DNA of 64,000 bases from Schmidtea polychroa. Its lineage: Eukaryota. A program made the position numbers and the translations under genes. How positions within the stretch are numbered: position 1 is the first letter of the stretch; each line of letters opens with the position of its first letter. Below the pieces are notes generated by a model, which made no database searches, had not been told where the DNA came from, and worked only from the letters and a program-made list of their open reading frames with translations. The stretch is taken from NCBI GenBank assembly GCA_044892525.1, contig CM097885.1, forward strand, positions 46,066,001 to 46,130,000, given 5' to 3'. Of this stretch, positions 17,919 to 51,204 are shown piece after piece.

Positions 17919-17928
17919 AGAAGGGGAG

Positions 17929-18045
17929 AGTTATGTAAAGTTGTTTGTTTTAATAATATTCGTTTTAGCGTGTGTTTGGAAAATATATTTTAATTATTAT
18001 TGATTTATTGATTTTATGAATTCAGAAGTTGAAGACATCATAACT
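17929..18045 (+). repeat. 3' LTR (117 bp) of the gypsy element
   Basis: Direct repeat of 9494-9610, preceded by a polypurine tract. Confidence 0.9.
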
Positions 18046-24594: not shown

Positions 24595-25666
24595 AAAATC
24601 TTTAATTCAAATAAAATACGGACATCTGGATAAAAATATTTTATTAATTCTGAAATACTTAAATAATACAAATTACATCAATACGTTAAAGTTATTAAAA
24701 TGAAGAATCAAATGAAGAGAGTTAACCAAAATGTTTAATCGTTAATATTTACCATTACTATTAGCTTTACAAATACTTAAATAAATCTATAAACAAATGA
24801 AATACCCCTTACTATTGTTTAGGCTGAGTCAAAATTCAATATTGTTCGTTCCAAATAGTTTGAATGGTGGTCCGTTGGATGTCGATTATTGTGACGAATG
24901 GTATTTCGGTCTCTGAACTGGTTTTGAATAGTTGTGGAGTTTTCTGAATGACGGTTGCTTGGCTAGTAGTGTCGATCCTATGAAATGCTCGGGGTTAACA
25001 GTAACAGTAAACATTTTTCTTACCTATGAAATGCTCGGGGTTAACAGTAAATTTAATGTTTTTGGTAGTTGTATATATATCAAATTCTTATTTGTGCGGA
25101 CCAATCAGAGTTGAGTACCGCTTATTTCTATTAATTTAATATAATTTTCTTGTTTTTAGGTTGTTTTTTCCTTATTTTCTTTATTTTTAATATGTTTTTC
25201 TATTTATTTCCTTAATTTCCTTATTATTTCTTGAATTCCTCTTTATTTATTTGTCAACTTGTTCTATTTTAATCTTTTCTTAATTTTATTTTTTGTTTTA
25301 ATTCTTATGTCTTACTTATTATTTTCCTTATATCTTATTCTATTTTATTTCTGATTTTATTTATTTTATTATTATTTTTCTTAATGTTCTACTTCCCTAC
25401 TTTCCTATTTTTCAACGATTAAATTTTCGACTCAGCCCAACAAATCACTCGGGGACCCATCAAAATTGCGTCCCGCAATTGCATAATTAACTTAATTCAT
25501 TCATTCAAAAAAAATATAACACGAACACGAAAATTATACAACAATGATAAAATTTTTATTGTAAGATCTAGGTCAAAGCAAGATCAAGCAAGTATCACTT
25601 AAGGTGATAGTTTGTACATACAATAAAAGTTTCCACATATAATAACACAAATGTTTGAATTAGAGT

Positions 25667-26335
25667 TTATGAATTGTTAACCATTGATGCTTCTGCTGGC
25701 GGCTGTTGGTTGGTTTGGGTATTGATGTTGAGATAGGTCTGACTATTAGATTTCGGCTGGATTGGTTGATTACTCGGGGTTCGAGGTTGGAATGGGGTTG
25801 GGTTAAGATTTGTCAGGGGCACTTCTTGAGGATTTTGGTTCGAGGTTACTCTTATTGATGTCGAGACTCTACATCTATTTCGAATTTCGTAAATTTTCAT
25901 GAATATTGGTAGACATAGGAGGAGGGTTTCTGCGATCACCACATATATGAGATAATGGGTGTCATTGATCTCGGGAGGTGTTTTTGGCTTTTCTACAAGA
26001 TTTTCAAAATCCTCTTGTTGCATTTGTTGTTCCAACTGGTCGATCTGTTGGCTTTGTTCGAAGATTTGTTTGTTTATCATTTTACAAATGGGATTCCTTT
26101 TACACATTGTTTGGATGTTGTTGATGTGTGATCGGGTTGATTGAATGGTTTGGATGATATGGGTTTTTACGGTCATCGGGTATGTGCATTGACTGGATTC
26201 TTGTTTAGGTTCTTGATTTTGATTTCGGTAATCTCGTACGATTTTCGGTTGGGCGTCTATTTGTTTGCTCTCCATCAGAATCCTCAATACCATCATTGTT
26301 ATCATCATCTCGCCTCGCATGATACTATTATACAT
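25667..26335 (-). CDS. Accessory ORF: probable single-pass membrane protein with coiled coil
   Basis: Hydrophobic N-terminus, CxxxxxC, TM segment YLIYVVIAETLLLCLPIFM, and a P/Q/N-rich tail. Confidence 0.65.
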   Translation of the reverse strand: MYNSIMRGEMMITMMVLRILMESKQIDAQPKIVRDYRNQNQEPKQESSQCTYPMTVKTHIIQTIQSTRSHINNIQTMCKRNPICKMINKQIFEQSQQIDQLEQQMQQEDFENLVEKPKTPPEINDTHYLIYVVIAETLLLCLPIFMKIYEIRNRCRVSTSIRVTSNQNPQEVPLTNLNPTPFQPRTPSNQPIQPKSNSQTYLNINTQTNQQPPAEASMVNNS

Positions 26336-26375
26336 TCATTATGTTTATTTACAATTGGTTTTAATGACCCTTAAT

Positions 26376-27128
26376 TTAATGGTTCTGATTTGGATTATTT
26401 TCGCCGATTCTCATCAAGGTGGACTCTGCTTTAATTACCCTGTGTCTTAACTCGGGCAGCATTTCCAATTGTCGGTCTTTTTCACGGGCTTCTCTCTTTA
26501 GATGTCTAATTTCTTTTTCCAAGCGTCTAATTTCTTCCCTTTTCTTTTCAAGGTTTCTTTTTAGCTCGATTTGTAGGAGATCTTGTTCGTTTTCTTGCAG
26601 GTAATTTTGTTGTTGATGTTTTCTTTCTATTTCTCTATATTTGCGGACCCACTTCCTCATTTCTTTACTTTCCCGTTGGTTTTCTTCTAGTTGTCGTTTT
26701 AATTTATTTATAGCTGTTTGGCGCTCCTTCGCCTCAGTTTTCCAGTAGTCTTGGATTACCTCCTTTGCTTTGAAGCTTGCCCTCTCTTTCCATAGTTCTT
26801 CCGCTATCTTTTCCCAGTTTTTCCCTCGCTTCCTTTGTTCGTGTAGCCATTCATTTTCCTCTTCCGTTTCTCTTTTTATTTCCCCCAACGCTTCGCACTC
26901 TTTCTTTAACACCTTTATCATTTTCCGGTCCTCTAGGTATTTGTTTATTAATCTCCCGTTTTCGTATTTCTCTTCCCGTAACTCGGCCTTTAGCGTTTGT
27001 GTTTCTGTTGTTTCTGCCTCAATCTCTCCCTCTTCTACGTCGCTCATAATTTCTATCATTTCCTCGATTTTCATATCTATAATATGTACAGTTAATGGTG
27101 CGCTATAGTGCGACTTATACGTATACAT
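26376..27128 (-). CDS. Accessory coiled-coil protein (likely start M19 at 27074)
   Basis: E/K/R-rich heptad-like sequence with the same codon bias as the other element ORFs. Confidence 0.7.
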   Translation of the reverse strand: MYTYKSHYSAPLTVHIIDMKIEEMIEIMSDVEEGEIEAETTETQTLKAELREEKYENGRLINKYLEDRKMIKVLKKECEALGEIKRETEEENEWLHEQRKRGKNWEKIAEELWKERASFKAKEVIQDYWKTEAKERQTAINKLKRQLEENQRESKEMRKWVRKYREIERKHQQQNYLQENEQDLLQIELKRNLEKKREEIRRLEKEIRHLKREAREKDRQLEMLPELRHRVIKAESTLMRIGENNPNQNH

Positions 27129-27246
27129 TGATATAAAATTTAATAGTTTGGGTTACAGTCCCTTGAATACTTTTACAATACTTTAATTTTTTTTGTTTGG
27201 GATATACGTCCCGGTTTTTAGTTTTTTTTCATCTTTTCATCCACCC

Positions 27247-28356
27247 TCATACGAAGGTTTCCTCCTGGCCTACATAACCTTCATCACTATCGACCGCGGA
27301 ATGTAACTGTATCGCAATAGGGTCGTATGGTAGGTAATATTGGGGAATTTGAGCTCTCAATTCACTAACTTCGTCTCTTAGAGCTCGAGTGATATTCAAT
27401 TCCTCGTCGAGCAGATAGGTGAGATACCTTGTCTCTTCATCTTGCGCCTCTATCTGTTTGTCTAGGGCCTTGATTTTCTCGTCGCCCTTCCATTTTTCAA
27501 TTTCTATTTCTAAGTTTTTAATATTTTCGGTGTACATTTTCCTTTCGTTTTCTAATTTTCTGTTTTTTCCCGCTAGGACCATGTTTCTTTGTTCCAGCGA
27601 TCCTTGTAATCCATTAAGGTCTCTTTTCATCTCTTCTACCTGATTTACTAATTCCACAACCCGTCCCGCTTGTTGGGTTATCATCTCTTCCATTGCGGCA
27701 TTCTCGTGCTCTCTTATGTCGCACTTCATTGCCAAATGTCGCTCAAACTCCATAGCCTTTGTTTGCCAGGTTTGGCTTCGGGCGGCGACCTTTCTCAACC
27801 TTTTCAATTCTTCCTTTATTATTAAATTCTCTTCCCATTTACCTTGTTCGCTTTCATATCCGAGTCTCATGGGCAATTCTTTCATCTCTTTTTTCATTTC
27901 TCTGTTTTGTCTTTTCCATTTCCTCGCTTCTGCCACTAAGTGCATCATTTTCCTGTCTTCTATTTGTTTTTCCGCTTCGCGCTTGGTGTTCTCATCGGTA
28001 AGTCTCTTTCTCGCTTCCTGCACTAGCTGCTTTAAGTAGTGGCTGTGTGCTTCTTGGCGGGTATTTTCTAGTGACGCCCATTTTGATGCTCTTTTGCATG
28101 CTTCTGCTTCCGCTCTTAAGTTGTGTATTAACCATTGGTATTGACTATTCTCATCTTCTCTAGTTTCTTCGATGTGATTTCGGGTGAGATTAGTTAGTTG
28201 GAACATTACTTTGTTCCATTTTTTGTTATGTTCTCGGGGAATTTGTGTCTTGTTGACATTGGTTGGGGCTATCGCAGTTTCGGTTATTTTCTCTTGTGTC
28301 ATCTCTAAATCATAGACATCGATTAATCTTTTTATTATGAAAAAGAATTTATTCAT
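27247..28356 (-). CDS. Accessory coiled-coil protein (likely start M19 at 28302)
   Basis: 369-codon open frame, predominantly helical and charged. Confidence 0.7.
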   Translation of the reverse strand: MNKFFFIIKRLIDVYDLEMTQEKITETAIAPTNVNKTQIPREHNKKWNKVMFQLTNLTRNHIEETREDENSQYQWLIHNLRAEAEACKRASKWASLENTRQEAHSHYLKQLVQEARKRLTDENTKREAEKQIEDRKMMHLVAEARKWKRQNREMKKEMKELPMRLGYESEQGKWEENLIIKEELKRLRKVAARSQTWQTKAMEFERHLAMKCDIREHENAAMEEMITQQAGRVVELVNQVEEMKRDLNGLQGSLEQRNMVLAGKNRKLENERKMYTENIKNLEIEIEKWKGDEKIKALDKQIEAQDEETRYLTYLLDEELNITRALRDEVSELRAQIPQYYLPYDPIAIQLHSAVDSDEGYVGQEETFV

Positions 28357-28494
28357 TATTTACTGTTTCTTGGGAAATTTTCGCATCATTTTTGGGTTTT
28401 CGTATTTAGGGTTTTCATACTATTATTATATAATATTTTATTGGTTATATACACCGATATATACAGATTATTATATACAACATTATTCGATTGG

Positions 28495-29883: not shown

Positions 29884-29968
29884 TCTATAATTATATGTAC
29901 AAATAGTTCTTATCGATACAGGTTCGATATTTTATTTACAATTATTTACATTTTAAGCTAGGTTTGGT

Positions 29969-30328
29969 TTAGGGTTCGGAAGAGTCGGCTTCGTGCCCGC
30001 TCTCCTCTCTATTCATTAGCCATTCCGACCAGTCTTCTATTTCTGTCTGTTCTGCTTCCTCCCTCATTCGGTCTATTTCAATTTCCTGTCGACGGCTATA
30101 TTGGGTTATCCTCTCTATCTCTCTTTGCATTTGTTCGATTTTTAACCTCTGGTCTTCAATTATCTTCAAATAACTAAATCCTCTGTTCATACTCTCGATC
30201 AGGTTTCTGTGCATCGTCAGTCCTTGTTCTTGCAAATTGGACACTAATTGTGCTAATACGGCACATTGTTGCTTCCATAATTCTTCAGTTACTGTATTGT
30301 GGTTCATTTCGTTATTTCCTTGATCCAT
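29969..30328 (-). CDS. Small accessory coiled-coil protein (119 aa)
   Basis: Open frame with heptad pattern, flanked by the same intergenic signals as its neighbours. Confidence 0.6.
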   Translation of the reverse strand: MDQGNNEMNHNTVTEELWKQQCAVLAQLVSNLQEQGLTMHRNLIESMNRGFSYLKIIEDQRLKIEQMQREIERITQYSRRQEIEIDRMREEAEQTEIEDWSEWLMNREESGHEADSSEP

Positions 30329-30488
30329 TCCTAATTTATATACACTTTTCAGCTCTTATGTAAATTTAATTTTATTTTATGATTCCCGTTATTGTATAAT
30401 ATTGATACCGCGCTTATATAAAGATATAGTACTGTTATATACATAAGATATACTTACTTTTTACAATTATATACAGTCATATTCCTTT

Positions 30489-33400
30489 CTATATACGTGA
30501 GTTTGGAGGGCGCTGAGCGTTCCAGGCCTCCACCCACTGTTCTTGTTTGATATTACTTGGTCGTTTCACTCGATGTTGGAAATTTCTGATTCGAGTCATC
30601 TCTAGTTCTCCGCGATGTCGTTTATCCTTAATTATTTTTATTGTTCCCCCCGTTATGATTAGGAATGCCCCTGTTATTATTATCCCACTGATCCACATCA
30701 TCTGCTTCACGCTTATACTCTCTGGTTTTTCCTGGTTTGTTAATGTTGATATTGCTTCTGTACTTTTCTCGTTCCCTCTTTTGCCGTTTCCTTTCATCCT
30801 TTCCCGTATTCTTGCTATTTCCTCGTTCATACCCTCCTTTGCCATCTTCTGTATTTTTTCCATCTCTTCTTCCGAAACATAGTTGTCCTGAGCTTCCTCA
30901 CCAGTTTTCTTGTGCTTTCCTCCTTCGTTCTTTTCGTCGTGGTTCTTTCTTTTCTTTCCTCTTTTCCCCGGGTATCGTCGGCATTCTCTTTTTGATTCAT
31001 TCCTCCAGATACAAACCGTGTATTCTTTCGGCGGCTGCTGCTGCGTCACATATTGATGGCATCTCTCACCTGGTCCTAATCTTGAAATACAGACTTTGTG
31101 CTCTTTTCTAGGTTGGATCTGCGTTATTACTACTTCACCACCTTTTCCTAGGTGTACCTCTTTTCCTTTGACGTTCGTTATTCTCTTCCCGTCTCGATTT
31201 CGGTATGCTTCTTGTATTCTTACTTCTGTTATTGGTTCTGTGTCCTCATTTATCAGTACTAGTTTCTGATACGCTCTAGACATGCATCTTCCTAGTATGC
31301 ACCTTTCCTTTAAGTCCCATTCTTCCTTTAAATCCCACTGCTGCTCTTGTGCTTGCTTTCTCTTTTCTTGTTTTAGTTCATCCTCTTTGCTATCTTGATT
31401 CTCCGCTTCTTTGGTTTCTTTTATCGTTCTCGTCCCTCCCTGAGCTGTTACTAACTCTATCATGGTAAGCATAATTATCATTAATATCATATTTGTCTCT
31501 ATTTCTTTGTTAGTGAAAGGTAGGCATACCCTCTGTTTTCCATTATTCGATTTTTCCTCCTCTTTGGTCTTGGTTCTCGGGCTGTTTCCCTCTCTTTTCG
31601 TATCCGAATCCTTGTTTTCTGGTTTACCCTCCTCCGGTTCTCTTTTCTCTTTATCCTCCTTGCGGTCTTTTCCGTTATTGTCATCGTGTTTATCTCCCTC
31701 GCTGTCATTTAAAATGTCGTCCTCGACATTTATATCGTTCAATAATCTGCGATATGCTGTTAGCACTCTGTTTCTTGCTAATTTTGCTTCGAATTCAAAC
31801 TCTTTTCTACCCGTTGCAGCATGTCTCTTTCTATTCCATTCTTTAACTAACTCTCTCAATTGCATACGACGATGTTTCCCAATTCGTTGTTGCTCGTTCT
31901 GATTTTGCGTGAATTTTAGGTCTTCTCTATTTAATACTATTAAAATAATTTTAGGCGTCCCCCCCTTAGTTAGGGTATTCTTTACCATCGCATTTTCTCC
32001 GTTTTCGTAGAATTCGTTTACATTTATCGCATATTTATTATTTTGTGGTACTCTCCAGGTTAATAATAATTTCATTGCTTCTAGATTTTTCCGTACCGTA
32101 TTCCATTGAAACTGAGATGTGTTTTTGCACATATTTTCAACTTCTTCTTTTGTCGCATTTTTGCAAATAAATCTGATCATTTCTAAGTTTGGCTGTATGG
32201 TTGCCCAGTCCAAGGTGGAATTTCCTTCATTGGACCTTTCGTCTAGTTTCGATCCTGATTGATGTAGGATGTGGAGTGTTTTTGGGTGTATTTTCGTTAT
32301 AGCTGCATACATCATGGCGGTTTCACCTTGTTCATTTTTCGTGTTGGTTTCCTCGCCCATCTCTCCAAGGATTCTCACGATCGTTATTGCTCTATTTTCT
32401 TTCGCCGCTAGTATTGCTTGTTGTAGGGGTGTTCTGGAATCCTTCGTTACCATCGTAAATGCTCGAGGCAAGAAGGTTTTGATTTTCCCGATATCTAAAT
32501 CCGTGGTTTGATCTCTTGCGTATGTGTGTACGGCTTTTATTATTTTTGACAATATTATTTCGTCTGGCAGCTCTAGCATTTCCTCAAAGAACACTTCTTT
32601 TGCTTTGCGTATTATTGCCTCTTGATCTATACTCATTGATTTGGTTTCGATGACGTTGTTTGTGACCGTTTGGTTCGTTGTTGACTTTGATTCCCTGGAT
32701 TTCTCATACCTTATTTTCGTTTTCTTTCCGTTTGGATTATTGATTCGTTCCTCTGCTGTAAGTATTTGGATAATATCCATGTAATTCTCGCGGATGTTAT
32801 TCATCGTGTCCATCATATATAATACACTTACTGTTTCCCAATATTTATGTCGTACTTGGTTAGTAAATTGGAATAGTGATTTTTCGAATGTGTCGATTCG
32901 CTTTTTTGTTAACTGTTCGTCTTTGTGATTTGTGAATTTTATCCCTCGTTCCAGTAATTGATTCGGGATTTCGAATAAATGATGTCCTTTCATAGCTTCT
33001 CTCATCAGCGTGTTCTCTCCTCTCGTGAACGCTTCGTTTACGTTGATCATATAATCGTTTCGAATTGGATTTCTCCATGTAATTAATATTCCGGTAATTG
33101 TCGTCAGTTTTTCTTTGATCGCTGTTAGCAATCCATCATACATGTTTCCGACTTCCCGATTGTCCTCATATGATAGTAGTTCCATCAATGACGTGAACGC
33201 CTCGGTACTTCTCCCTCTGATAGCATGATGTAGAGCGTTTTTCCGCTCGTGGTCTTGTGTAGTTATTTTCGATCCGGTATCGAGTAATGCGGTTATGATG
33301 TCTTTTGTTTTGCCTCTGTTTGCGGCTATCATTAATGGTGTGTAACCTTGGTTGTTTGTTTGTTCTGTTGATCGCTTGCAGTCGTGAAATGCTTCTATTG

Positions 33401-36400
33401 TTTCTAGTATTTGCTCGTTGTTACCTACTTTCATGAGTTTGTGTAATGGTGTGTCTCCGTAATGATCTGTTATTGTAAATAATATTGGCCATTGGCTTTT
33501 GACTACTCGCAATAATGGGTGTGTCCTTTCTCTATTTGCATAGTTCTCGATCATCGTCAATAATCCTCCTAATATTTCGAAATCTAATCGATCTTTTGCC
33601 CATCCAGGTATTTTAATTTTTACCTCCTTTACAATCTTTTCCGCTTCTGATGGTTGGATACCTAATCGTCCAGTGATCGGTTCTGCGAGTTGCTGCATCA
33701 TGTTCATTCGGTAGGTTTGCGAACGTGTGGTTAATGTACGGCCTTCTGGTTGACTAGTGGCTGTTTTTGGGATTGATTTGCATCGTGCCACGTTTACGTA
33801 TATTGGTCTGGTAAAGGGGTTATTTACCAATTTCACTCTTACATTAGTTTCGCCTACGAATAAGATCTCATATGGTCCTTTTCCGTTGCGTTGTAACTTT
33901 TTTGTGGTTCCTGGAATTAATTCCGGGGTTTCTATCATTACCCAATCACCTGTTTGGAACGTATGTTGCTTCACGTTTTTCTTTCGATCGTGTAAATCTT
34001 TATAACTTTCCTGGTAGAACTTGATATTTAATCCCGCAGTTTCCCAAATTTCTTGCATTCTTTCCTTGAATTTCGTAACATAATCATCGATCTCCATATA
34101 CTGCGATATCGGTGGTTGGTATTCCAGGTCCATTGGCATGTTACATTCTCTTCCGTACATTAATTTGAATGGGCTCATTTTCGTTGATGCGTGAATCGAC
34201 ATTCTGTACGCCATAAGACATAGGTTTATATATTCGTCCCAATCTCGTTGGTGACGGTCAACGTAGTTTGATAACATTTGTATAAGTGTTCCATTAAATC
34301 TTTCCGTCATCCCATTGGTTTGAGGGTGGTATGGAGATGTTCTTAGTTTTGCTATTTTGAAGTAATTTGTTACTTCGCTCATTATCTCACTCATAAAATT
34401 AGTTCCCTGATCGGTTAAGATTTGTTTTGGTGTTCCATATCGGCAACATATCTCTTCTACCAAAATTTTTGCGATTGTTTTAGCTTTTTGGTCTGGCATC
34501 GCGAATGCTTCTGGGAATTTCGTAAGAAAGTCTGTGATCACTAGAATGTAAACGTTTCCTTTATCTGACTCTGGTAGTGGACCAACTACGTCCATGGATA
34601 TCATTGTCATTGGTTCTATTGGTACTGGCATTGGTGTTAAAGGTGCTTTCCATTTCGATCCAGTATTCTTCCTGGTTGCACAAGTTAGACAATTTTTTAC
34701 CCATTCGGTTACATCTTCAGTTAACGTAGGCCAAAAATATTTCTGTTTCATTCTTGCTAACGTCTTTTTCGATGACATATGTCCTCCCAATCTCCCATCG
34801 TGATATTGCGTTAGTAACTCTTTTCGTCGGTTTTCCGGTATACACATTAATCGTTTTTCCCCATCCATTATCAGCAACCAATCTTTCTCTATAATATATC
34901 GGTGTCGGTGTTTATCCATATGTTCTTTTAATTTTTGGTCTTTCGCATATACCTCTGTCTTTCCGGTTTTTACATAATCGATAATTTGTTTTAATTCCGC
35001 GTCCTCTTGTTGGTCCTTTCGTAATTGACAGAAATCCAAATCTTCCGCTACTATTAAGCATATGCGTTGCATTTCTGAATCCACCAAATCTGGGAAAATA
35101 AATCTTGACATACAATCGGCGTTGGCATTTGCTCTTCCCGCTTTGAATTTTATAAATGGGGAGTATTCTTGCAATTGCATGGCCCATCGCATCAGTCTAC
35201 TGGACGCTTCTTTATGTTGCCCTAACCACACTAATGGTTGATGATCCGTGGTTATGCATATCTCATGTCCCCATAGTAAATATCGGAAGTGTTTGATAGC
35301 TTGTATTATAGCCAATGCTTCTCGTTCTGTTACCGAATAGTTCTTTTCGTGCTTTTTGAATGTTCGACTGTAATACCCGATTACTCTCTCTTTTCCCTCA
35401 TCGTCTAATTGTCCCAGAATCGCGCCTGCCGCGTACCCGCTTGCATCCGTTGCCAATAGAAATGGCTTCTTAAAATCTGGGTGTACGAGGATAGGTGCTT
35501 CGATTAGTTTGTCTCTCAGCGTTTCGAACGCCTGTTGTTGTTCTTTTTCCCAAATGAACGAAATATCCTTCTTTACTAATTCCTGGATTGGTTTTGCAAT
35601 TCCTGCATAATTTTTGATAAATTTGCGATAGTATCCGCATAATCCTAGAAATTCCTGAACTTGGGTGACAGTTTTCGGTGCTGGACATGTTTTTATTTTC
35701 TCAATGTTTCTTGGATCTGGCTCCTTTCCTTTAGCTGACACTATGTGTCCTAAAAACGTGACTTTTTCCTTTGCCCAATCGCATTTTGATGGTTTGAGTT
35801 TGAGTTTCCACTGTCTTAATCTAATAAATACGTTTCGGATATCTTCCAGATGTTGTTCAAATGTCGCTGAATAGATTAGTAAATCATCAATATATACCAT
35901 ACATTGTTTGATTCCATGGGTGACAAAGTTCATACACCGTTGAAATGATGCTGGTGCGTTGGTCAGTCCAAATGGCATTTTCCTGAATTGATATAGATCT
36001 CGTCCCAACGTGAAAGCTGTTTTCTCTTTGTCCTCATCTTTGACTTTAATCTGCCAGTATCCACTTTTTAGATCTAAAGAAGTAAAATATGCTGCCCCTT
36101 GCAACATCAATAACATCTCATTGATGTCCGGCAATGGGTAGGTATCTCTCTTGGTCACTGCGTTTAACTTCCGATAATCGATACAGAATCGTTGGGTGCC
36201 ATCTTTCTTTTTCACCATGACCACTGGGAATTGCCAGGGTGAGCAACTTGGTTCGATTACTTTTGCGTCTAGCATCTTTTGTACTTCTGTTTCGGCTATT
36301 TCTTTCTGCATTTCTGCTAGCTTGTATGGTCTCAATGCAATTGGGGTTTCGTCTATGAGTGGTATTGCATGTAAGGTAACATCACATGTACCCAAGTCTA

Positions 36401-39400: not shown

Positions 39401-41345
39401 ATTTGTTGGGTGAGGCTTGTCTGCATTCTTCTATGTCTCTCAATGAGTATTTATCTCTCATTATCATATTATCACAATCGTAGATGGTGAAACCTGTTGC
39501 TCCACTTGTGCACAACATCCATATCATCATAGTCATCATTAACGAATTTATTGATGCTTTTCTGCTTGCGGGATCTTTCATCGGTAGTTCCCATTCTAGT
39601 TCATTTAACAGTTTTTTCAATCTAACTTGCATCGACCTTTCTTGCTCATTTTTCCGTGGCGCTTGTATTAGTCTTTTCCATCCTCCTGCACGAATAATAT
39701 GTGGTTCAATAGTATTCTCTATGATTGAAACGGTCATTTCCACATGATTTGCAAACTGTTTATTTGGTATTTTCCTCGCAGCTAGTCCCATCAAATTATA
39801 CATCAAATAAGTGATTACCACTAGATGATGCTCGTCATCATTTGCATTTGTCGTGAGCTGCTCAATCACTCTCTTTGTTTCGTCCCAATCCGTTTTGGTG
39901 GTTTTCGTTTTCTCTTTGATTAACTTTGGGATTATCCCCGAAATGGTGCGCCATAATTGTCTAGCTTCCGTACTGGCTACTTTCCGTTGCCACAAACGTC
40001 TAAGTTGTGGGTTTGTTATTATTAACATATCTTTTAACAATTCTCGTATCCATTTTTCTCCTCTTTCGATCGTTGGTTGGGCTTCCTTTAGATCCCATAC
40101 TATTTTATCCAATTTTTCTAATCGAAATTGCCCTTGTTCTTGCTTTAATTGTTCTTTGGTTTTGAACTCAGACTTTTCTCCTTGTTTCTTGGGTCTTCCT
40201 TTTGCCCGTTTTTCCATCATCGTTCCTGCTTCTCTGGTATTTTCGTAATTCGGATTTCTTTCGTTATCCGTTCTGGGTAATGAGCTATCGTTATTTCTTA
40301 GCCACTCATTCCATTCGTCTATTATTTTGTCGGTTTGACTTTCTGGTGTTACTTTCGTTGGTTCTCTTTGCTTCTGGAATTGTTCATCCGTTTCGGTTTC
40401 CGTAGTATTGTCGATGATTTCTTTGATGTTCAGTTTCGTTGGTTGTTGATAACTCGTTGATGGCTGGTTATTAGTCCACATTTCGGCTCCTGTCGGCCAT
40501 CTCACTAATAGCGGTGATCTTTCTCCTGGTTCATCGTCACTATCTTCCAGGATTATCTCTTCAACTTCTTCAGTTTCATTAGATTTACTTGGTGCTTTGT
40601 TCGGACTTGGAGTACTCAAACTGCCTTTTGTTGGTTTAATAATTTTACTTTTCCTTTTTAACGGTTTTCCCAACGTTTCTGCCATTGTTAATACATTTGT
40701 CTCTTCCAATCTCATGGGGGTTATCCCGACGTCTGCATTATCGTCTAGTGATTTTCCGAACAGTTGCAGATGGAATGGAGTTTCATATGCTAATTTCTTT
40801 TTTAATTCTCTAATTTTTGTTGTTGGATGCACCTCTAGTTCCTCGATGCTCTTGTCCGGATACTTGATTCGGATGTGATACCTCTCCTGGGTGTCTTGTG
40901 CCCATTCCTGATTTCTCCATTTTCGAATAATTTGTTCTAGCTGTTCTGGATACCATTCATTATATTGCCGGTATTCCTCTATTGCCTTTGCCATTCCTCT
41001 CAGATTGTGGATGTCCTCTGATGTCTTTAAGATGATGTTAGCCAACGCTACTACTTGGCGTCTTTGATTTTTCGCTCCCATTGCTAAGATATCGCCTAAT
41101 TGTTTATATCTTTCTTTCTCTTCTCGTTCTCTTGCTTCCGTCGCTTCCTCGCCGTCCATATCAGCATATTCACGTTCCTTTTTCCTCATTGCATGAATAT
41201 GTCTCGCTTCATTTTCGCTTTCTGATGTGACATCCGTCTCGCCTTCGTCATCTGATGTCTGTTCCCTTGCTTCCTCTTCATATTTTGGAGGTTCCTCTTC
41301 TTCTTCCTCCGATTCACTTTCTGTCTCACCAATGTCTGTTTCCAC
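30489..41345 (-). CDS. pol: 3618-aa polyprotein: UBL - Bcl-2-like - envelope glycoprotein - PR - RT - RNase H - IN - ankyrin repeats - C-terminal membrane protein
   Basis: PR IDTGANVS (~37110); RT YIDD (~35890); RH LATDASG (~35450); IN HDGRLGGH...CLTC, DVVGP, TDQG, NGMTERFN, GPY; ankyrin GDTPLH, GYTPLM, GETAMM. The annotated start is a GTG 7 codons after the gag UGA, in the same frame. Confidence 0.95.
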   Translation of the reverse strand: METDIGETESESEEEEEEPPKYEEEAREQTSDDEGETDVTSESENEARHIHAMRKKEREYADMDGEEATEAREREEKERYKQLGDILAMGAKNQRRQVVALANIILKTSEDIHNLRGMAKAIEEYRQYNEWYPEQLEQIIRKWRNQEWAQDTQERYHIRIKYPDKSIEELEVHPTTKIRELKKKLAYETPFHLQLFGKSLDDNADVGITPMRLEETNVLTMAETLGKPLKRKSKIIKPTKGSLSTPSPNKAPSKSNETEEVEEIILEDSDDEPGERSPLLVRWPTGAEMWTNNQPSTSYQQPTKLNIKEIIDNTTETETDEQFQKQREPTKVTPESQTDKIIDEWNEWLRNNDSSLPRTDNERNPNYENTREAGTMMEKRAKGRPKKQGEKSEFKTKEQLKQEQGQFRLEKLDKIVWDLKEAQPTIERGEKWIRELLKDMLIITNPQLRRLWQRKVASTEARQLWRTISGIIPKLIKEKTKTTKTDWDETKRVIEQLTTNANDDEHHLVVITYLMYNLMGLAARKIPNKQFANHVEMTVSIIENTIEPHIIRAGGWKRLIQAPRKNEQERSMQVRLKKLLNELEWELPMKDPASRKASINSLMMTMMIWMLCTSGATGFTIYDCDNMIMRDKYSLRDIEECRQASPNKLDIVRTKVTYHVYQESDFIRTQARECVVSKKVLAYYCGQYSYSTLILPGLDKEIVSIQREDCKELFRTGALKMHNGVTIHGQTGMIKTESVYVSGKVKSSDGSCNGGTYTIRGEVISGVVVIESYTVELKEYEAQFDANNYQMKTNPTCKATENVCRTGVSTIIYEANTQKCRLQLLKSALFNEVKGEIYENENDEDGNDRVRMRNGKPMPPSPREKRLSTQKTPTALITDDPDLGMRFIKEKETTKCDSIVYKTNYAGIYMSRQIIDRAVGKIATEDVKLYLYANNKMDFLFHRGQTTLQKVYYDLIQNDCSLNKEILKTKLAIAITHPDNTMPSLPLPDGHFGRMVGEVMYTYQCTKTYARMPEKSILPEKRCANELEIRYKGQNRFVQPVTRIMNPVGFYPNLFNCSNAYGPLYERPDGKWMMLPGKTISEEPKKFGLIELATELDFKPIDVSNGGMYSPEDLETARLNVLFPARRESILSNMVTITGGTNYQSGPNYELLLSPDHFQQATSNMMKAMWGRFLVFGQMMAGILGIILIIQIVRVILTQMLACFDIYKREKKVNWKMIVGFLPFLAKTMVLHGHSKDIHRIKRLIKILTKIKGTDEEVGRRFRKVMYDEATRRQLKKNKPKFLDRFRSQSSNSDSDDDDNGNDKCLYPNRNPNEKPMETAPYWEKEKTNTWIANGSYIPPDIVGPQTALTMTQNMYPQLPSQPGMHYMPTRRTKSVDQADDVRTIAAMSLPGGPAVTVMIQINGKETNAMIDTGANVSAIAINQIPSKHWKDIESTTIHIIACSKETVDVVGRWWTTLRYQDNEIETYLAVIPKLSVPCIIGTDLMPELLKEVVIDLTTMCLKDKTGRICKMNAVIRCPEKIIVPAKSQMICQIKVDTGMEGEVIFEPSKSFEKRRELPLAREIITINQEGVIPLNITNFEEEDKIIYENEKLGRLTPMMDIELPKVTNEMIKDDELWTIDSMLLTNDEKKKLHRLLVEYKDIFAISDLDLGTCDVTLHAIPLIDETPIALRPYKLAEMQKEIAETEVQKMLDAKVIEPSCSPWQFPVVMVKKKDGTQRFCIDYRKLNAVTKRDTYPLPDINEMLLMLQGAAYFTSLDLKSGYWQIKVKDEDKEKTAFTLGRDLYQFRKMPFGLTNAPASFQRCMNFVTHGIKQCMVYIDDLLIYSATFEQHLEDIRNVFIRLRQWKLKLKPSKCDWAKEKVTFLGHIVSAKGKEPDPRNIEKIKTCPAPKTVTQVQEFLGLCGYYRKFIKNYAGIAKPIQELVKKDISFIWEKEQQQAFETLRDKLIEAPILVHPDFKKPFLLATDASGYAAGAILGQLDDEGKERVIGYYSRTFKKHEKNYSVTEREALAIIQAIKHFRYLLWGHEICITTDHQPLVWLGQHKEASSRLMRWAMQLQEYSPFIKFKAGRANANADCMSRFIFPDLVDSEMQRICLIVAEDLDFCQLRKDQQEDAELKQIIDYVKTGKTEVYAKDQKLKEHMDKHRHRYIIEKDWLLIMDGEKRLMCIPENRRKELLTQYHDGRLGGHMSSKKTLARMKQKYFWPTLTEDVTEWVKNCLTCATRKNTGSKWKAPLTPMPVPIEPMTMISMDVVGPLPESDKGNVYILVITDFLTKFPEAFAMPDQKAKTIAKILVEEICCRYGTPKQILTDQGTNFMSEIMSEVTNYFKIAKLRTSPYHPQTNGMTERFNGTLIQMLSNYVDRHQRDWDEYINLCLMAYRMSIHASTKMSPFKLMYGRECNMPMDLEYQPPISQYMEIDDYVTKFKERMQEIWETAGLNIKFYQESYKDLHDRKKNVKQHTFQTGDWVMIETPELIPGTTKKLQRNGKGPYEILFVGETNVRVKLVNNPFTRPIYVNVARCKSIPKTATSQPEGRTLTTRSQTYRMNMMQQLAEPITGRLGIQPSEAEKIVKEVKIKIPGWAKDRLDFEILGGLLTMIENYANRERTHPLLRVVKSQWPILFTITDHYGDTPLHKLMKVGNNEQILETIEAFHDCKRSTEQTNNQGYTPLMIAANRGKTKDIITALLDTGSKITTQDHERKNALHHAIRGRSTEAFTSLMELLSYEDNREVGNMYDGLLTAIKEKLTTITGILITWRNPIRNDYMINVNEAFTRGENTLMREAMKGHHLFEIPNQLLERGIKFTNHKDEQLTKKRIDTFEKSLFQFTNQVRHKYWETVSVLYMMDTMNNIRENYMDIIQILTAEERINNPNGKKTKIRYEKSRESKSTTNQTVTNNVIETKSMSIDQEAIIRKAKEVFFEEMLELPDEIILSKIIKAVHTYARDQTTDLDIGKIKTFLPRAFTMVTKDSRTPLQQAILAAKENRAITIVRILGEMGEETNTKNEQGETAMMYAAITKIHPKTLHILHQSGSKLDERSNEGNSTLDWATIQPNLEMIRFICKNATKEEVENMCKNTSQFQWNTVRKNLEAMKLLLTWRVPQNNKYAINVNEFYENGENAMVKNTLTKGGTPKIILIVLNREDLKFTQNQNEQQRIGKHRRMQLRELVKEWNRKRHAATGRKEFEFEAKLARNRVLTAYRRLLNDINVEDDILNDSEGDKHDDNNGKDRKEDKEKREPEEGKPENKDSDTKREGNSPRTKTKEEEKSNNGKQRVCLPFTNKEIETNMILMIIMLTMIELVTAQGGTRTIKETKEAENQDSKEDELKQEKRKQAQEQQWDLKEEWDLKERCILGRCMSRAYQKLVLINEDTEPITEVRIQEAYRNRDGKRITNVKGKEVHLGKGGEVVITQIQPRKEHKVCISRLGPGERCHQYVTQQQPPKEYTVCIWRNESKRECRRYPGKRGKKRKNHDEKNEGGKHKKTGEEAQDNYVSEEEMEKIQKMAKEGMNEEIARIRERMKGNGKRGNEKSTEAISTLTNQEKPESISVKQMMWISGIIITGAFLIITGGTIKIIKDKRHRGELEMTRIRNFQHRVKRPSNIKQEQWVEAWNAQRPPNSRI

Positions 41346-41366
41346 GAAGGTTCCTTTCCGGATTTC

Positions 41367-44342
41367 TCATTCCTTACTTTCTGCATTCCACACTCTTTCC
41401 CATGGGGTTCGTCTGCAAGATCTGGTATTTAATTTCGTGATTTTTCCTTGTAGCTCTTTTTCTTTTAACCATTGTTGGTGGATTTCAATTATTTCTGTAG
41501 ATTTTCGATATAACGTTTTCATCCGGTCTCGTATTTCTTTTTGATATGTTACATCTCTTGTTCGGAATTCATCCATTGGTACTATCCTGATTATCTGATG
41601 ATTGTCCCACATACCCATTTCGCTTAACGAGGTGTCGTCCTCCGCTCGTAATATTATCTTATCGTACATCATGACTACATCATCCACCATACCATCACTA
41701 CTTTCGCTACGTACCTTTTCCGTTATCTCTTGGTTTATTTTTGATACCAAGTCATCCACTGTACTCTGATTGCTCATTTTTATTCGTCGTTTTTCTTCGT
41801 TCGGTAACCATATGGTTATTTCCAACCTCTGTGGCTGGGTTTCTTTTAACCTTCCATATTTGTGGATCAAATTTATGGTTCTCCAATCACTCATTCGGAG
41901 CATTTCTGTATCTCGCAACCGGCTCATTAGTTCGTACATGACTGGGGCTCGTCTGGTGATGAGTAAATCCCAGTTGTCTTCTACTTGTTCTTGAATTTGT
42001 TTGATCAGCTTATCCAGGTTTCGTCTCAGAGTACATTGTTTTATTTGTTCTAATTTCAATTTGATATTAAAATCATATTCTGCCTTGGCATCTTTAGCCC
42101 AATCGTAAAGGTTGGCTGGTTGTTTTTCTTTATGCAACTTCAGTATTTGCGTTTCTCCTGGCCATATTAGTGCATCTACTAAGTGCATATCTGGTTTGAT
42201 CTGTTCTCCTTGGTATTGATACAGATATTCTTTCTTTCTCGAACTTCCCAAATGTTCTCGTATCCAATCGAAAAGTTCGTCGGTGACTGTATTTTTTATC
42301 CACATTCTTTCAAGTCCTCTACTCGTTCCAATTTTTATTACATACCGCGTGGTATCGGCCTGCTTCATTTTTTCCATATAATTTTTTATAATTGATTTTT
42401 CCTCGTTTGGTATTAAATCTTTCTCGTTTCTTTCCAATTTCATCACTTTTTGCACGAATCGCCTGAATGGTATTACGTCAATGAACTCTTGGTTCCTCAC
42501 TACTACTGGGAGTATTTCGGCTACCTGTTTTATCGCTTCCTCCCTTGCTTTTCTCAACTTTATTTCGATATCTTCGTCTTCACTTTCACTGGTTATCTCG
42601 TTTCCGCTTTCTTCCTCTTTGATTTCCCCTTTTGGAGGTTCGCTTATTTCATTCGGCTGTAGTATTTCTCCACCCAAACTACTTACATAATCTTCTTCTT
42701 CGTCTGACGATGCTACATCTTTTGTCCTTTTCATCATATTGATTTGCAAGTTTCTCATCCTTGGTACTTTCTTTAGTTTCTTTCTTTCGAATATTGTTGT
42801 TTCTTCTGGTTCTGATTCTTGTAGCATTTGGTGGTTTAGTTGACTGGTTTGTTCCTTGCTCTTGTTATTTTCATCTTCTGTCTCGGTTTTCGCTTTATTA
42901 TGTTCTTTTTCGATTTTATCCTTTATCTTTTTCCAGAATATTTTCTGAGTTCTCTGGTTTCCTTTTAAAATCGTGGTTGAATTCTCTGTTTTCATTTCCG
43001 TTGTTATTTCTTTTACCTTTTCTGGTTCAGTCATGGGTACTACCCTTGGGCTTTTCCCGTAATTGTAGCAATACTGGCTCTTCATGTCTTTTACTAACCT
43101 CATCATATTTATTCGCAATGGTTGTTCTTGTCGTTGTTGGTTGCGTTCTTGTTTTATCCTCTCTTCCTCGGCCTGTAGCCTTTGCCATTCTTGTACATGT
43201 TGATGCACTTCATAATTGTTGAGATTTTCGGTACTCCTCATCATACGTATATTCTGGGTTTGTTGTGGTGCTGATTCTTGTCTTGGTCTCATCATTTGTT
43301 GCATCATCTGTTTCATCTGCGAAATTTCCTGCATAACGTTCATTTGTTTTCCTTCGTTAGGGTTACTTTGTCGTTGCGGATTCGCTATATAATTATTATT
43401 TCGCTGTGGTGGTCGTTGTTGTTGGCCCCTTTCTCGGCAATCTCTGGAGATGTGACCTGGCTGACCACAGTTAAAACAGCCTCGCAATTGGCATACATTT
43501 TCGGTATGTCCACGCCGTCCGCAACGATTACAATTTGAATTTCTATAACAATCTCTGTCCCAGTGTCCTGGTTTACCGCATGTTCGGCACTGCTTGTTAT
43601 CGTTCATATTTCGCCGATTATTGAAATTGTTCTCATTATTCGGGTTGTTACGATTACCATTATTCCCGTTTGATCGTCCTTGTGGTGGTTTGAAAATTTG
43701 GTGCGCTCCTGGTATAAATTGATTCATTTTCGGTTCTTGATTGTTGTTATCTCCGTTATCCGCTTTCGCTATTGCTGTCGCTATCCTTCCCTCCTCTTGC
43801 ATAATATTCATTTGAGCTGGAAGGTGGAGCTCGCATCTTGTAGCCCAATCTATGGCTTCCTCTAATGTTTTGCACATTTGACAACCTACTGAGGCTCTTA
43901 CTTCTTCTCGGCGTAATCCCTCTATGAAATAACCGATCAGATTTTCTTCGGGTAATTTTCCATTCATTGCTTTCTTTGCTAATCTCCGCAATTCACTGGC
44001 ATATAATGTTATCGATTCGTTTGCTCTTTGTTTCCTATTTGCTAGTTCGCCCAACGCCTGGTTGATTGGCTTACTGGCTCCGAAGGTTTTCTTCAGGAAT
44101 GTTTTAATATCTTCCCACTTTTCTAATTTCGTGTCTCTCTCTTTAGCTTCTAAATATACCTCTAATGCACTATCGCACAAAAACAACGGCATCCTTTTAC
44201 TAATTGCTTCGGGTGTCCATCCACACACAGTGATATAAACTTCAAAATTAGTTATGAACGTTGCTAGCTTGTTTGCATTTCCGTTGAACGGTTCTCCTCT
44301 GAACTTCTCTTTATACTCGTCGGTTTTTACGACATTCGTCAT
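41367..44342 (-). CDS. gag: Gag (capsid-like region plus three CCHC knuckles) with a ~600-aa C-terminal extension
   Basis: FNGNANKLATFITNFE...; CRTCGKPGHWDRDC, CNRCGRRGHTENVC, CFNCGQPGHISRDC. Confidence 0.92.
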   Translation of the reverse strand: MTNVVKTDEYKEKFRGEPFNGNANKLATFITNFEVYITVCGWTPEAISKRMPLFLCDSALEVYLEAKERDTKLEKWEDIKTFLKKTFGASKPINQALGELANRKQRANESITLYASELRRLAKKAMNGKLPEENLIGYFIEGLRREEVRASVGCQMCKTLEEAIDWATRCELHLPAQMNIMQEEGRIATAIAKADNGDNNNQEPKMNQFIPGAHQIFKPPQGRSNGNNGNRNNPNNENNFNNRRNMNDNKQCRTCGKPGHWDRDCYRNSNCNRCGRRGHTENVCQLRGCFNCGQPGHISRDCRERGQQQRPPQRNNNYIANPQRQSNPNEGKQMNVMQEISQMKQMMQQMMRPRQESAPQQTQNIRMMRSTENLNNYEVHQHVQEWQRLQAEEERIKQERNQQRQEQPLRINMMRLVKDMKSQYCYNYGKSPRVVPMTEPEKVKEITTEMKTENSTTILKGNQRTQKIFWKKIKDKIEKEHNKAKTETEDENNKSKEQTSQLNHQMLQESEPEETTIFERKKLKKVPRMRNLQINMMKRTKDVASSDEEEDYVSSLGGEILQPNEISEPPKGEIKEEESGNEITSESEDEDIEIKLRKAREEAIKQVAEILPVVVRNQEFIDVIPFRRFVQKVMKLERNEKDLIPNEEKSIIKNYMEKMKQADTTRYVIKIGTSRGLERMWIKNTVTDELFDWIREHLGSSRKKEYLYQYQGEQIKPDMHLVDALIWPGETQILKLHKEKQPANLYDWAKDAKAEYDFNIKLKLEQIKQCTLRRNLDKLIKQIQEQVEDNWDLLITRRAPVMYELMSRLRDTEMLRMSDWRTINLIHKYGRLKETQPQRLEITIWLPNEEKRRIKMSNQSTVDDLVSKINQEITEKVRSESSDGMVDDVVMMYDKIILRAEDDTSLSEMGMWDNHQIIRIVPMDEFRTRDVTYQKEIRDRMKTLYRKSTEIIEIHQQWLKEKELQGKITKLNTRSCRRTPWERVWNAESKE

Positions 44343-45650
44343 GATTGGTGTTCTAGGTTCGTCTGTTTCTTTTAAATTGTCTAACGATGTGACTAAACTT
44401 TGGGCTGATAATTCCTCGGTTGACGTTGCTAAACTATTAGTGATATCGGACAGACTTTCTCTACTTCGAGATCGACTAGGGGTATATCCGAGATTTTCTT
44501 GGTCAAATATGGGTACTTGATTGGTTCTTCTGGATCCTTGTGATATTCCTCTTTGATGTTTAATGGATCGTCCTCTTTTGAGTTGTTGTAATTCGTCTCC
44601 TGAAAATAATACGTCTCCTGGCTTACTAGAAGATCTAAGATTGGGTTTATCCGTGATTCCTTTCTTACGCTTCTTGGTAATTAGCGGCTATTGAATTGGA
44701 CGCGTTCGGTTCTGATTGTGTTTCCTTCGATAAATATTCTGTATGAATCTGCTACTGAGATCCTGAGGAGATTTACTAATCCTTGGCAGATGGCTGCTAG
44801 TATTTCTTCCGTTCTGGAGTCTTCCGGTTGCTGTGTCTCTCGGTGCGGGTTCTGAATGGATTTATCCTTGGTTGATTGTCGATTTCTTCGAATTCCTTTT
44901 GTGCAGGTTCTGGATTGTCTTGGTTGGCTGGATTGGCTTGATATCTAAAATGAAAAAATGATCTCGTGTTGCATTTGCTTACACGACTTCATCATTCTTT
45001 CTACAACATTCAAAAACAGACGCCTTTTAGGTTTCTGTTTGTGCTTCCCCTATCTTTTTGTGAAATCCTTTCTGCGGGTTATAATATCCCATCAGCCCGT
45101 ATTTTCCGTCGATTTTAAATTATCTATATGGGGTAGTAACAATTATCTATAAAGTCGTAATAATTATCTATTCGTTATCAATTATAGTAAAAATAGGTCG
45201 TTGTCAGTCTCTGCTTATTACCCCCCTTCGTTTTCTTATTCCTTTGCGCTGTTGTCGCTGTTTTACTTTTCGTATTTACTATTATCCCACTCGGTTCTAC
45301 TCTGGAACCGGTAAAAATACATTTTCCCGGTTTACAAAAAAAAAATTCCGTAGAGTTTCTCTACTTCACTGGGATCCCTTTAATTAGTTAGTTACTTTCC
45401 TCTTTACCCATTATCATCATTTCATCTATTCTTTATTTTCTATTATCTCTTTAATTCGTTTCCTTCTTCCCTTTCCTTTTTCATTATAATCTTATTTTCT
45501 TTTCCACGAGCTCGTTTATTTCCTCTCTAAACTCGAATTTTCAAAATTACATTCAATTTGTTCTAGCTAGCTTTAATATTCCGTATCACTAGTAATTTTA
45601 AATATTATCTCATTGTAGCTTAACTGCTATCTCTCGCTTTTCTAGGCCTT

Positions 45651-46279
45651 TACGACTGGCTGGCACTATTCAACAGCTCAATCTTCTTCCTTCTGATCGG
45701 TTAGACTATTCAACAACTCGATCTTACGACTGGCTGGCACTATTCAACAGCTCAATCTTCCTCCTTCCTGATCGGTTGGACTTTTCACAACTCGACCTTA
45801 CGACTGGCTGGCACTATTCAACAGCTCAATCTTCCTCCTTCCTGATCGGTTGGACTTTTCACAACCCGACCTTACGACTGGCTGGCACTATTCAACAGCT
45901 CAATCTTCTTCCTTCTGATCGGTTGGACTATTCAACAACTCGATCTTACGACTGGCTGGCACTATTCAACAGCTCAATCTTCCTCCTTCCTGATCGGTTG
46001 GACTTTTCACAACTCGACCTTACGACTGGCTGGCACTATTCAACAGCTCAATCTTCTTCCTTCTGATCGGTTGGACTATTCAACAACTCGATCTTACGAC
46101 TGGCTGGCACTATTCAACAGCTCAATCTTCTTCCTTCTGATCGGTTGGACTATTCAACAACTCGATCTTACGACTGGCTGGCACTATTCAACAGCTCAAT
46201 CTTCCTCCTTCCTGATCGGTTGGACTTTTCACAACTCGACCTTACGACTGGCTGGCACTATTCAACAGCTCAATCTTCT
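45651..46279. repeat. Tandem array, 8.5 x 74 bp, two unit variants
   Basis: TACGACTGGCTGGC recurs at 45651, 45725, 45799, 45873, 45947, 46021, 46095, 46169 and 46243. Confidence 0.95.
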
Positions 46280-46853
46280 ATATTCCTCGCTCTGCATGCT
46301 TCTATTTCTCTTTTCTTCTTTTACTCTAGTTTACCATTTTCTCTGTCTACTTTTAATTTGTCGACTTAATCTTTACCGCTTGGGAGTGTTTCCCCTTTCC
46401 CCCCTTGCTTAAAACGCACGACGATCGCGATGATCCATTTCTACCTTGGCATGGTGATCAGTCATGTCGCAAAAACTTCTCATCATATGCGATGGTACCC
46501 CGCCCTACGCTTCTTACTTGGGTTGATCAGTTATCCCCTCCCAACGGGTTCTTGCAATAAGACGTACCGCCCGAAGGTGGCTCGGTTTGTACCCCTGCAG
46601 TCTATATTGGGACTAATTCCACGTTATTCAACCCTCTCTTCATTTGATTCCGAAGAAAAAGAATAAAACAAAACAAACACGCAAATATTCATTCGTCATG
46701 CAAATTTTATTAGTCCTAATCATCAAAACTTTTTAAAGACGAATTTATTTATCATAAACATAAAGATTGAATCATTAACAGTACGTGTTACTTCAACAAT
46801 TTCATGCATTCTTGTTCAAACATCGTATACTTGCTGTTACATCGCCGGCCGTT

Positions 46854-47339
46854 TCATTCGCCATAATAGACCATATGGGTCTCTTTTATTTCATATTTGC
46901 ACATCGTGCATCTTTTTAGGTCTTTTACACACTCTTCACAGTGACTGAGGTGTCCACACGGTAAGAATAATACGCGAATAGGACGGAGTTTGCAGGCTAT
47001 ACAAGTTCGTAATTGGTTAACTTTTTCCTGTATTTTTTGTTCGATTGCATCTGGTATTGTATTTAGTGAGTCTTTTAGACGCTGATAATCTAGATTTAAT
47101 GTTGGGTGGTTCAATCTCTCTTGATACCACTGATATACGGTTTCGGGGTTTATTTTTCCATCTGGGCGACTTAGGCCTGTGGCTAATATCATATGATTAG
47201 GTACGACTGGTGTTTGTCCGATTGCTTGTAGTAATATCGCGTTGATTTTTTCTCTTTTATGCGTCAGTGTTGTTAGGGAGTCGTTTTCTATATCGATAAA
47301 CTTGAGCAGTTGTTGCATTTGGTTCGCGAATTCTGTCAT
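46854..47339 (-). CDS. C-terminal RING protein of the IAP/MDM2-like type (161 aa)
   Basis: CIACKLRPIRVLFLPCGHLSHCEECVKDLKRCTMCKYEIKETHMVY at the extreme C-terminus. No BIR domain seen. Confidence 0.85.
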   Translation of the reverse strand: MTEFANQMQQLLKFIDIENDSLTTLTHKREKINAILLQAIGQTPVVPNHMILATGLSRPDGKINPETVYQWYQERLNHPTLNLDYQRLKDSLNTIPDAIEQKIQEKVNQLRTCIACKLRPIRVLFLPCGHLSHCEECVKDLKRCTMCKYEIKETHMVYYGE

Positions 47340-47658: not shown

Positions 47659-47676
47659 ATCCCGGCTGAGCCCCCA
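47659..47676 (-). promoter_or_regulatory. Primer-binding site, tRNA-Pro type
   Basis: Minus strand reads TGGGGGCTCAGCCGGGAT, 16/18 to the MLV tRNA-Pro PBS TGGGGGCTCGTCCGGGAT; 7 nt from the LTR end. Confidence 0.85.
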
Positions 47677-51169: not shown

Positions 51170-51204
51170 GTATATATATCAAATTCTTATTTGTGCGGAC
51201 CAAT
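51170..51204 (-). promoter_or_regulatory. Candidate LTR promoter: CCAAT box and TATA-like box (copy at 25071-25105)
   Basis: GACCAATCAG (NF-Y-like) followed on the minus strand by ATATATATAC, downstream of an A-rich U3. Confidence 0.5.

Follow-up and report, generated by a model that had tools for sequence, protein, structure and literature searches.

The closest described systems to the retroelement treated here, which lies on the minus strand of a 64,000-nucleotide stretch of the Schmidtea polychroa genome (assembly GCA_044892525.1, contig CM097885.1, positions 46,066,001 to 46,130,000; the whole stretch is called the window below), are the Burro elements of planarians. Published work is cited by PubMed Central number. 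In a 2019 review, Burro of Schmidtea mediterranea was described with MATH_TRAF_C, BIR, ankyrin, BCL2-like and Ubi/SUMO-like domains and an in-frame env, and its apoptosis and ubiquitination domains were taken to suggest meddling in host systems (PMC6431247). Burro1/GYPSM1 of this species is credited there to Jurka 2007 and Grohme 2018, and Burro-2, -3 and -4 of the same host are reported to share the motif set and the BCL2-like domain (PMC6431247). Moreover, a BIR-RING protein of Burro1 was reported to guard stem cells against caspase-mediated death (PMC13465017, citing Lee et al. 2026), BURRO1 and BURRO4 are de-repressed upon PIWI knockdown (PMC8532177) and Burro is named as a known repeat in PMC11410931. 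Virus-like accessory genes for death and ubiquitin functions in a retrotransposon are already published and were tested for Burro1. The initial annotation of this window, made from the sequence alone, proposed the convergent capture of such regulators; the idea is not new, both capture and the apoptosis/ubiquitin idea standing in PMC6431247. The addition made here lies in the comparison: in a young sister family, TRAF, RING, Bcl-2-like, ubiquitin-like (UBL) and ankyrin parts are under purifying selection although the BIR is lacking. The reading that we favor, with a probability of roughly 0.62, is that of a recent Burro-type copy whose cargo would represent virus-style accessory proteins acting for the element's benefit.

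Element structure, copy number and relation to Burro

The element is flanked by long terminal repeats (LTRs) and occupies positions 21585-51541 (29,957 bp), thereby enclosing the whole interval 25667-47339, so that the assignment of all cargo domains to a single retroelement holds (Table 1). The 5' and 3' LTRs differ by a single mismatch and a 4-bp target duplication (21581-21584 and 51542-51545) flanks the element; the insertion is therefore very recent. It is a Ty3/gypsy element with protease, reverse transcriptase (RT), RNase H and integrase in this order. Read 5' to 3', it carries an open reading frame (ORF) within the LTR, the RING ORF, a 74-bp tandem array, the long polyprotein frame and then five ORFs including that of TRAF. 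The polyprotein itself runs from Gag over three UBL modules, an AT-hook and the Bcl-2-like domain to Env, followed by protease, RT, RNase H, integrase, two ankyrin clusters and a hydrophobic tail. Env was absent from the domain list of the initial annotation; it lies in frame between the Bcl-2-like domain and the protease and has 16 cysteines, a furin-type site at 38759 and a hydrophobic anchor at 37755-37811. Between protease and RT (36402-37001) Pfam returned no dUTPase match, the published dUTPase call for Burro having been made by HHpred.

A single in-frame stop (41367-41369), likewise missing from the initial annotation, splits the polyprotein of the window copy. It is a defect of this copy and not a trait of the family: 143 of 150 scored matches to the junction are stop-free, three further TGA cases occurring among the 150. 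Programmed read-through at this Gag/Pol stop is ruled out, as these 143 matches are free of stops over 238 codons. Only by read-through could the window copy yield the full-length polyprotein, but it retains open frames for Gag, RING and TRAF. Intact frames of the family have 4,732 codons, and about 70 of 150 matches lie in frames of at least 4,700 codons (standard code, hand count). The separate genes are similarly well preserved among their best-scoring genomic matches, with 91 of 92 stop-free for TRAF (94-100% identity), 144 of 150 for the RING ORF (71-100% identity) and 107 of 111 for the 369-aa ORF. The family is young, numerous, actively spreading and env-bearing, and its accessory genes are conserved.

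By its layout, the element is almost certainly an env-bearing Ty3/gypsy element of the Burro type. With Burro1/GYPSM1 it shares the size of about 30 kb, one huge polyprotein (nearly 5,000 aa in Burro elements, matched by the 4,732 codons given above) with three CCHC knuckles, UBL, BCL2-like and ankyrin domains, env in frame before the protease, TRAF/MATH and coiled-coil ORFs. However, it is not Burro1, because MATH is absent from the polyprotein (Pfam finds none in either part of the frame) and the BIR is missing; it further differs in its three UBL modules, in a RING-only ORF upstream and in having TRAF as a separate gene. These features set it apart as a sister family to Burro1 and make it most likely that the family is Burro2, Burro3 or Burro4, an assignment made from the published descriptions. 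A search with the RT-integrase region returned relatives at 50-53% identity, of which one carries env and another ankyrins, no named Burro being among them. A Burro1-type family is also present in the genome: its MATH lies in frames of 4,791 codons, and BIR ORFs of 392 codons follow about 13 kb downstream of it (several coordinate pairs, matched by eye), and its accessory block runs from a TRAF ORF, about 29% identical to the TRAF of the window, over BIR-RING to a coiled coil.

Two other systems are comparable. The Burro-like element of Dugesia tigrina likewise carries MATH/TRAF in an accessory ORF outside the polyprotein, but there TRAF lies upstream and Gag has two knuckles, whereas in the window TRAF lies downstream and Gag has three (PMC6431247). 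Errantiviruses of the GAG-ENV-POL type with an HSV/gB-type env share the platyhelminth host, a fusogen of the class III type and an env placed between gag and pol; the word Burro is absent from the main text of that paper (PMC13524379). The literature search returned no report of a BIR-less Burro RING or of selection on the cargo, which is a weak negative, as the original Burro papers and the supplements lay outside the search and may name the family of the window.

Cargo domains and selection

The initial annotation listed a full TRAF, an IAP-type RING, two ankyrin clusters and up to three ubiquitin-like domains, and all of these were recovered. The TRAF is complete, with RING (PF00097, 22.1 bits, above the cut-off), zinc fingers, coiled coil and MATH (Pfam E 2e-27), and its closest solved relatives are TRAF3 and TRAF2 (E 4e-28). 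A histidine ligand of its RING is replaced by cysteine, likewise in the relative P0001, and the homologue search with the whole TRAF returned one protein. In a MATH tree, four element rows are separated from ten presumed host rows (support 74/81; unrooted, with host labels assumed), a weak grouping; the element MATH may have been captured once.

The separate RING ORF ends in a RING of the IAP type (PF13920 E 4e-11; best PDB match the cIAP2 RING, E 2e-10). The top ten of its 14 PDB matches are cIAP1/2, ML-IAP or XIAP, and the Atlas returned generic C3HC4 RING clusters only. Neither Pfam on the ORFs of the element nor a six-frame motif scan of it detected a BIR, and none of the best 150 of 309 genome-wide BIR candidates that were scored lies inside it. 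The layout of the RING ORF is identical in ten other copies, for nine of which the comparison covers the ORF itself and not the upstream DNA. Compared to copy L076, the RING ORF has a synonymous divergence (dS) of 1.08, against 0.03 for RT and 0.11 for TRAF. This pattern suggests that the RING gene is a mosaic and that modules may be exchanged between lineages.

Among the ubiquitin-like modules, UBL3 reaches E 0.005 for ubiquitin in Pfam, which is below the cut-off, and its predicted model (predicted local distance difference test, pLDDT, of 68-76 in this part) places ubiquitin or SUMO in the top four rows (TM-score 0.73-0.82, E 0.0015-0.002); the predicted fold thus confirms it as ubiquitin-like. 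UBL1 and UBL2 gave no ubiquitin match in the Pfam scan. They scored 15.0 and 17.3 bits, respectively, on leave-one-out profiles, a value that none of 500 shuffles attained for either, and homology to UBL3 confirms them as probable ubiquitin-like modules. A helical stretch precedes each UBL (four helices, pLDDT 56-60 in the model); the repeat unit would therefore consist of a helical domain plus a UBL. The ankyrin clusters match Ank_2 with E 6e-17 and 1e-9, and their identity of 25% over 226 aa marks a duplication.

The Bcl-2-like domain stood in part. Direct tests remained below threshold: Pfam gave E 0.03-0.06 (15.1 bits against a cut-off of 31.4), phmmer gave no PDB match, the Atlas gave none, and an hhalign comparison to the host Bcl2-2 gave a probability of 4.6% (a host-like Bcl-2 locus of the same assembly, L033, is 99% identical to Bcl2-2 of Schmidtea mediterranea). 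The relatives carry the assignment further. Two of them reach 31.4 and 33.3 bits, a profile of the segment retrieved four proteins among 1.8 billion, three with Gag or Env and one at the Pfam Bcl-2 cut-off, and the profile against PDB listed 53 Bcl-2 family members in 55 rows, with a best E of 0.29. A model of medium confidence (pLDDT 61.6), for which only element rows were used, retrieved Bcl-2 family members in every Foldseek row shown, with E 0.065 or worse. In VIA the top three rows were Bcl-2 family members (Z 6.6, root-mean-square deviation 3.5, 114 residues aligned), tied with unrelated rows, and the viral fold library gave nothing below E 0.5, its best matches being viral Bcl-2 proteins at E 0.55 or worse. 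Relatives and model together make a divergent Bcl-2 fold highly probable. NWGR is the BH1 motif of the BH3-binding groove. It is visible in the Bcl-2 family rows of the profile alignment to PDB and absent at the aligned position of the element domain; the GGW of BH2 is invariant in all eight aligned rows. A basic-hydrophobic segment between the Bcl-2-like domain and Env is common to the relatives.

Bcl-2 sequences were also observed elsewhere in the genome. A third, shorter family (L054, L063, L064), whose frames span about 3,050 codons, encodes Gag, a single UBL-like module, an AT-hook, a Bcl-2 domain (25.6-33.3 bits) and Env. Furthermore, dispersed multi-copy Bcl-2 genes lie outside Burro frames (L048, L051, L055, L062 and others); many of them contain a single stop where an intron probably lies, and another mobile element may be their carrier.

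Neutral decay of the copies, the contrary outcome considered in the initial annotation, is refuted, and comparison of the copies indicates purifying selection on the named cargo. Between the window and one diverged lineage, TRAF and all polyprotein segments are stop-free with ratios of nonsynonymous to synonymous divergence (dN/dS) of 0.01-0.07 and dS over all segments of 0.9-3.7. The UBL modules and the Bcl-2-like domain change almost as slowly as RT (dN 0.027, 0.021 and 0.036 for UBL1 to UBL3 and 0.047 for Bcl-2, against 0.011), the ankyrin clusters 1 and 2 reach 0.103 and 0.089, and TRAF is faster (0.183). Against a closer lineage dN/dS is 0.19 for TRAF and 0.09 for Bcl-2, the changes in ankyrin cluster 1 and UBL1 being too few to judge. 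The corresponding ratio of proportions of differences (pN/pS) is 0.083 for env and 0.15, 0.36 and 0.72 for downstream ORFs, and for the RING ORF it is 0.13-0.45 in ten of ten copies, the RING part being lower than the N-terminus in all ten.

What the cargo may do

Large viruses use viral IAPs, viral Bcl-2 proteins and viral ankyrins, the same domain classes as found in this element. The BIR is the caspase-binding part of IAPs. Baculovirus IAPs have BIRs, whereas the RING of the window has none; by the known biochemistry of IAPs, direct caspase inhibition by this family is therefore unlikely. The proposal that captured death and immune regulators keep the host cell alive holds in part: capture by Burro is in print and protection of stem cells is reported for Burro1, but the family of the window lacks both the BIR and the NWGR of BH1. 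Its second arm, control of NF-kB, found no support. The ankyrins are domains of the polyprotein, unlike the viral ones, with no IkB among the 60 listed of 216 matches to cluster 1, and PMC13563047 (2026) describes seven divergent Rel-domain genes and no clear NF-kB homologue in S. mediterranea. A Pfam scan for the Rel homology domain (RHD) had returned 0 matches; it was discarded as a measure of NF-kB absence, having no positive control and being a false negative given these seven genes (PMC13563047).

In the favored reading of virus-style accessory proteins, the element's own protease would process the polyprotein, as would signal peptidase and furin of the host. Behind the Bcl-2-like domain, the hydrophobic segment may serve both as the signal peptide of Env and as a membrane tail anchor of that domain. 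As ubiquitin-ligase adaptors, TRAF and the BIR-less RING would either reroute TRAF/IAP stress signaling of the host or eliminate restriction factors, and the Bcl-2, UBL and ankyrin parts might be interaction scaffolds. The likely outcome would be that the producing cell is kept alive, by a route involving neither direct caspase inhibition nor demonstrable control of NF-kB. Host TRAFs, also covered in PMC8807557, are needed for cell survival in S. mediterranea, and TRAF loss raises cell death (PMC7586133).

Several points weigh against this reading. The linkers are constrained like the domains (dN/dS 0.05), the deep comparison suffers from saturation at synonymous sites, and most domains were compared in two lineages only; selection therefore shows that the proteins are needed and not that they are anti-apoptotic. 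The Bcl-2 fold stays below every threshold in both Foldseek and VIA, the proposed anchor behind it is below the hydropathy cut-off, and the copy counts, being best-scoring matches, are biased toward intact copies. When 25600-45500 is divided into 30 bins, four contig sets that are only guessed to be RNA cover 30, 23, 7 and 0 of them, with identities mostly of 90-99%; the RING ORF lies outside the covered stretch and the comparison is not taken as proof of expression.

These points leave room for a structural reuse of the domains, which is improbable but fares best among the alternatives. The in-frame domains would then be parts of particle assembly, such as spacers, a membrane tether or adaptors for budding and trafficking, the separate ORFs would function in assembly or exit, and apoptosis would play no role. 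The UBL and Bcl-2 parts lie between Gag and Env and are conserved nearly like RT, UBL3 has no conjugatable end and the Bcl-2 domain no BH1, and the same order recurs in the third family and in P0004/P0005, all of which would fit. However, the element retains separate genes for a whole TRAF and for a RING of the IAP type, and Burro1 has a BIR-RING IAP in the corresponding block.

Slightly less probable is that the family benefits its host as reported for Burro1, with expression in stem cells and protection from apoptosis, TRAF and the Bcl-2-like domain replacing the BIR. The protection reported for Burro1 (PMC13465017), the rise in cell death upon loss of host TRAFs (PMC7586133) and the strong constraint on TRAF and Bcl-2 argue for it. 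Yet the effect described for Burro1 depends on a BIR-RING protein, while this family lacks the BIR and the BH1 motif, selection on replication alone explains constraint in a multi-copy mobile family, and BURRO1 and BURRO4 are repressed by PIWI (PMC8532177). Whether the host benefit reported for Burro1 is peculiar to that family could be judged against the BIR-less family, which represents a natural control.

More speculatively, the BIR-less RING, swapped between lineages, might pair with host or Burro1 IAPs and degrade or inhibit them, alongside the element's own TRAF and an ER-anchored (endoplasmic reticulum) Bcl-2-fold protein repurposed from BH3 binding, so that Burro families would oppose each other; we regard this as doubtful, but if true, competing retroelements would set the death thresholds of stem cells. 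That the cargo consists of neutral passengers, host fragments caught by chance and carried along, is largely refuted, as stops are absent from TRAF, RING, UBL, Bcl-2 and ankyrins and, with dS saturated, their dN/dS lies well under 1, even though other elements in the window also acquire host fragments and the 222-aa ORF evolves almost neutrally (pN/pS 0.72).

Feature coordinates and further observations

Table 1. Features of the retroelement, in window coordinates.
Feature	Position	Strand	Remarks
5' LTR	47684..51541	-	3858 bp, TG...CA ends
262-codon ORF within LTR	48218..49006	-	hydrophobic N-terminus; second copy 22119-22907
Primer-binding site	47659..47676	-	complementary to host tRNA-Pro 3' end; matching genomic site is tRNA-Pro TGG
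RING ORF, 161 aa	46854..47339	-	helical N-terminus and C-terminal IAP-type RING, no BIR
74-bp tandem array	45650..46279		8.5 copies, in long leader; strand not assigned
Gag-Env-Pol polyprotein frame	30489..44342	-	about 4,600 codons from first Met; one in-frame stop
Gag core and three CCHC knuckles	43434..44189	-	Retrotrans_gag E 6e-10, zf-CCHC E 1e-11
UBL1	42120..42350	-	probable, by homology to UBL3
UBL2	41568..41831	-	probable, by homology to UBL3
UBL3	40662..40880	-	predicted beta-grasp; no C-terminal Gly-Gly
AT-hook-like GRP motif	40182..40214	-	common to relatives
Divergent Bcl-2-like domain (predicted)	39657..40109	-	BH2 GGW present, BH1 NWGR absent
Env, class III (chuvirus/gB-like) fusion glycoprotein	37722..39542	-	PF24664 E 2e-70
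Protease, RT (YIDD), RNase H, integrase (HHCC, DDE, GPY)	33867..37154	-	catalytic motifs present
Ankyrin cluster 1	33147..33479	-	Pfam Ank_2
Ankyrin cluster 2	32142..32459	-	duplicate of cluster 1
Polyprotein tail	30489..31499	-	two hydrophobic segments, no family
119-codon ORF	29969..30328	-	probable coiled coil, no family
TRAF, full-length, intronless, 462 aa	28495..29883	-	RING, Cys/His-rich fingers, coiled coil, MATH
369-aa ORF	27247..28356	-	probable coiled coil
250-aa ORF	26376..27128	-	probable coiled coil
222-aa ORF	25667..26335	-	one hydrophobic segment; fastest-changing ORF
3' LTR	21585..25442	-	pairs with 5' LTR

The ORF within the LTR matched no Pfam family above the cut-off. The primer pattern has 1,580 matches genome-wide and recurs in a tandem array with a 475-bp period (G000:C1, about 130.90-130.95 Mb), the single unit scanned being tRNA-Pro(TGG).

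With regard to the host gene complement, many of the planarian TRAF/MATH and IAP genes that have been counted may be element-borne. Section 8 of PMC7586133 gives 121 to 282 TRAF/MATH transcripts, and no word in the main text of this paper begins with 'transpos'.

A second element in the window also carries host-like fragments. It lies at 11351-16017 on the plus strand, nested inside a gypsy element (9494-18045), and has 836-bp direct repeats and a Gag of the BEL/Pao type (DUF1759). Its open frame 11642-13102 encodes a proteasome-subunit fragment, which starts in the repeat (E 3e-23), and a ubiquitin domain (E 2e-21). The nested element is multi-copy: scoring of 88 candidates gave 178 matches, many of them with the ubiquitin part in frames of 1,153 codons.

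Just beyond the 5' LTR, about 140 bp (52099-52236) are inverted and 79% identical to a part of both LTRs, probably an older LTR remnant. Finally, the blocks 578-4764 and 54910-64000 are duplicated at 94-98% identity, which probably reflects segmental duplication around insertions; the ORFs 839-1591 and 2459-3385 in this region have no Pfam matches.

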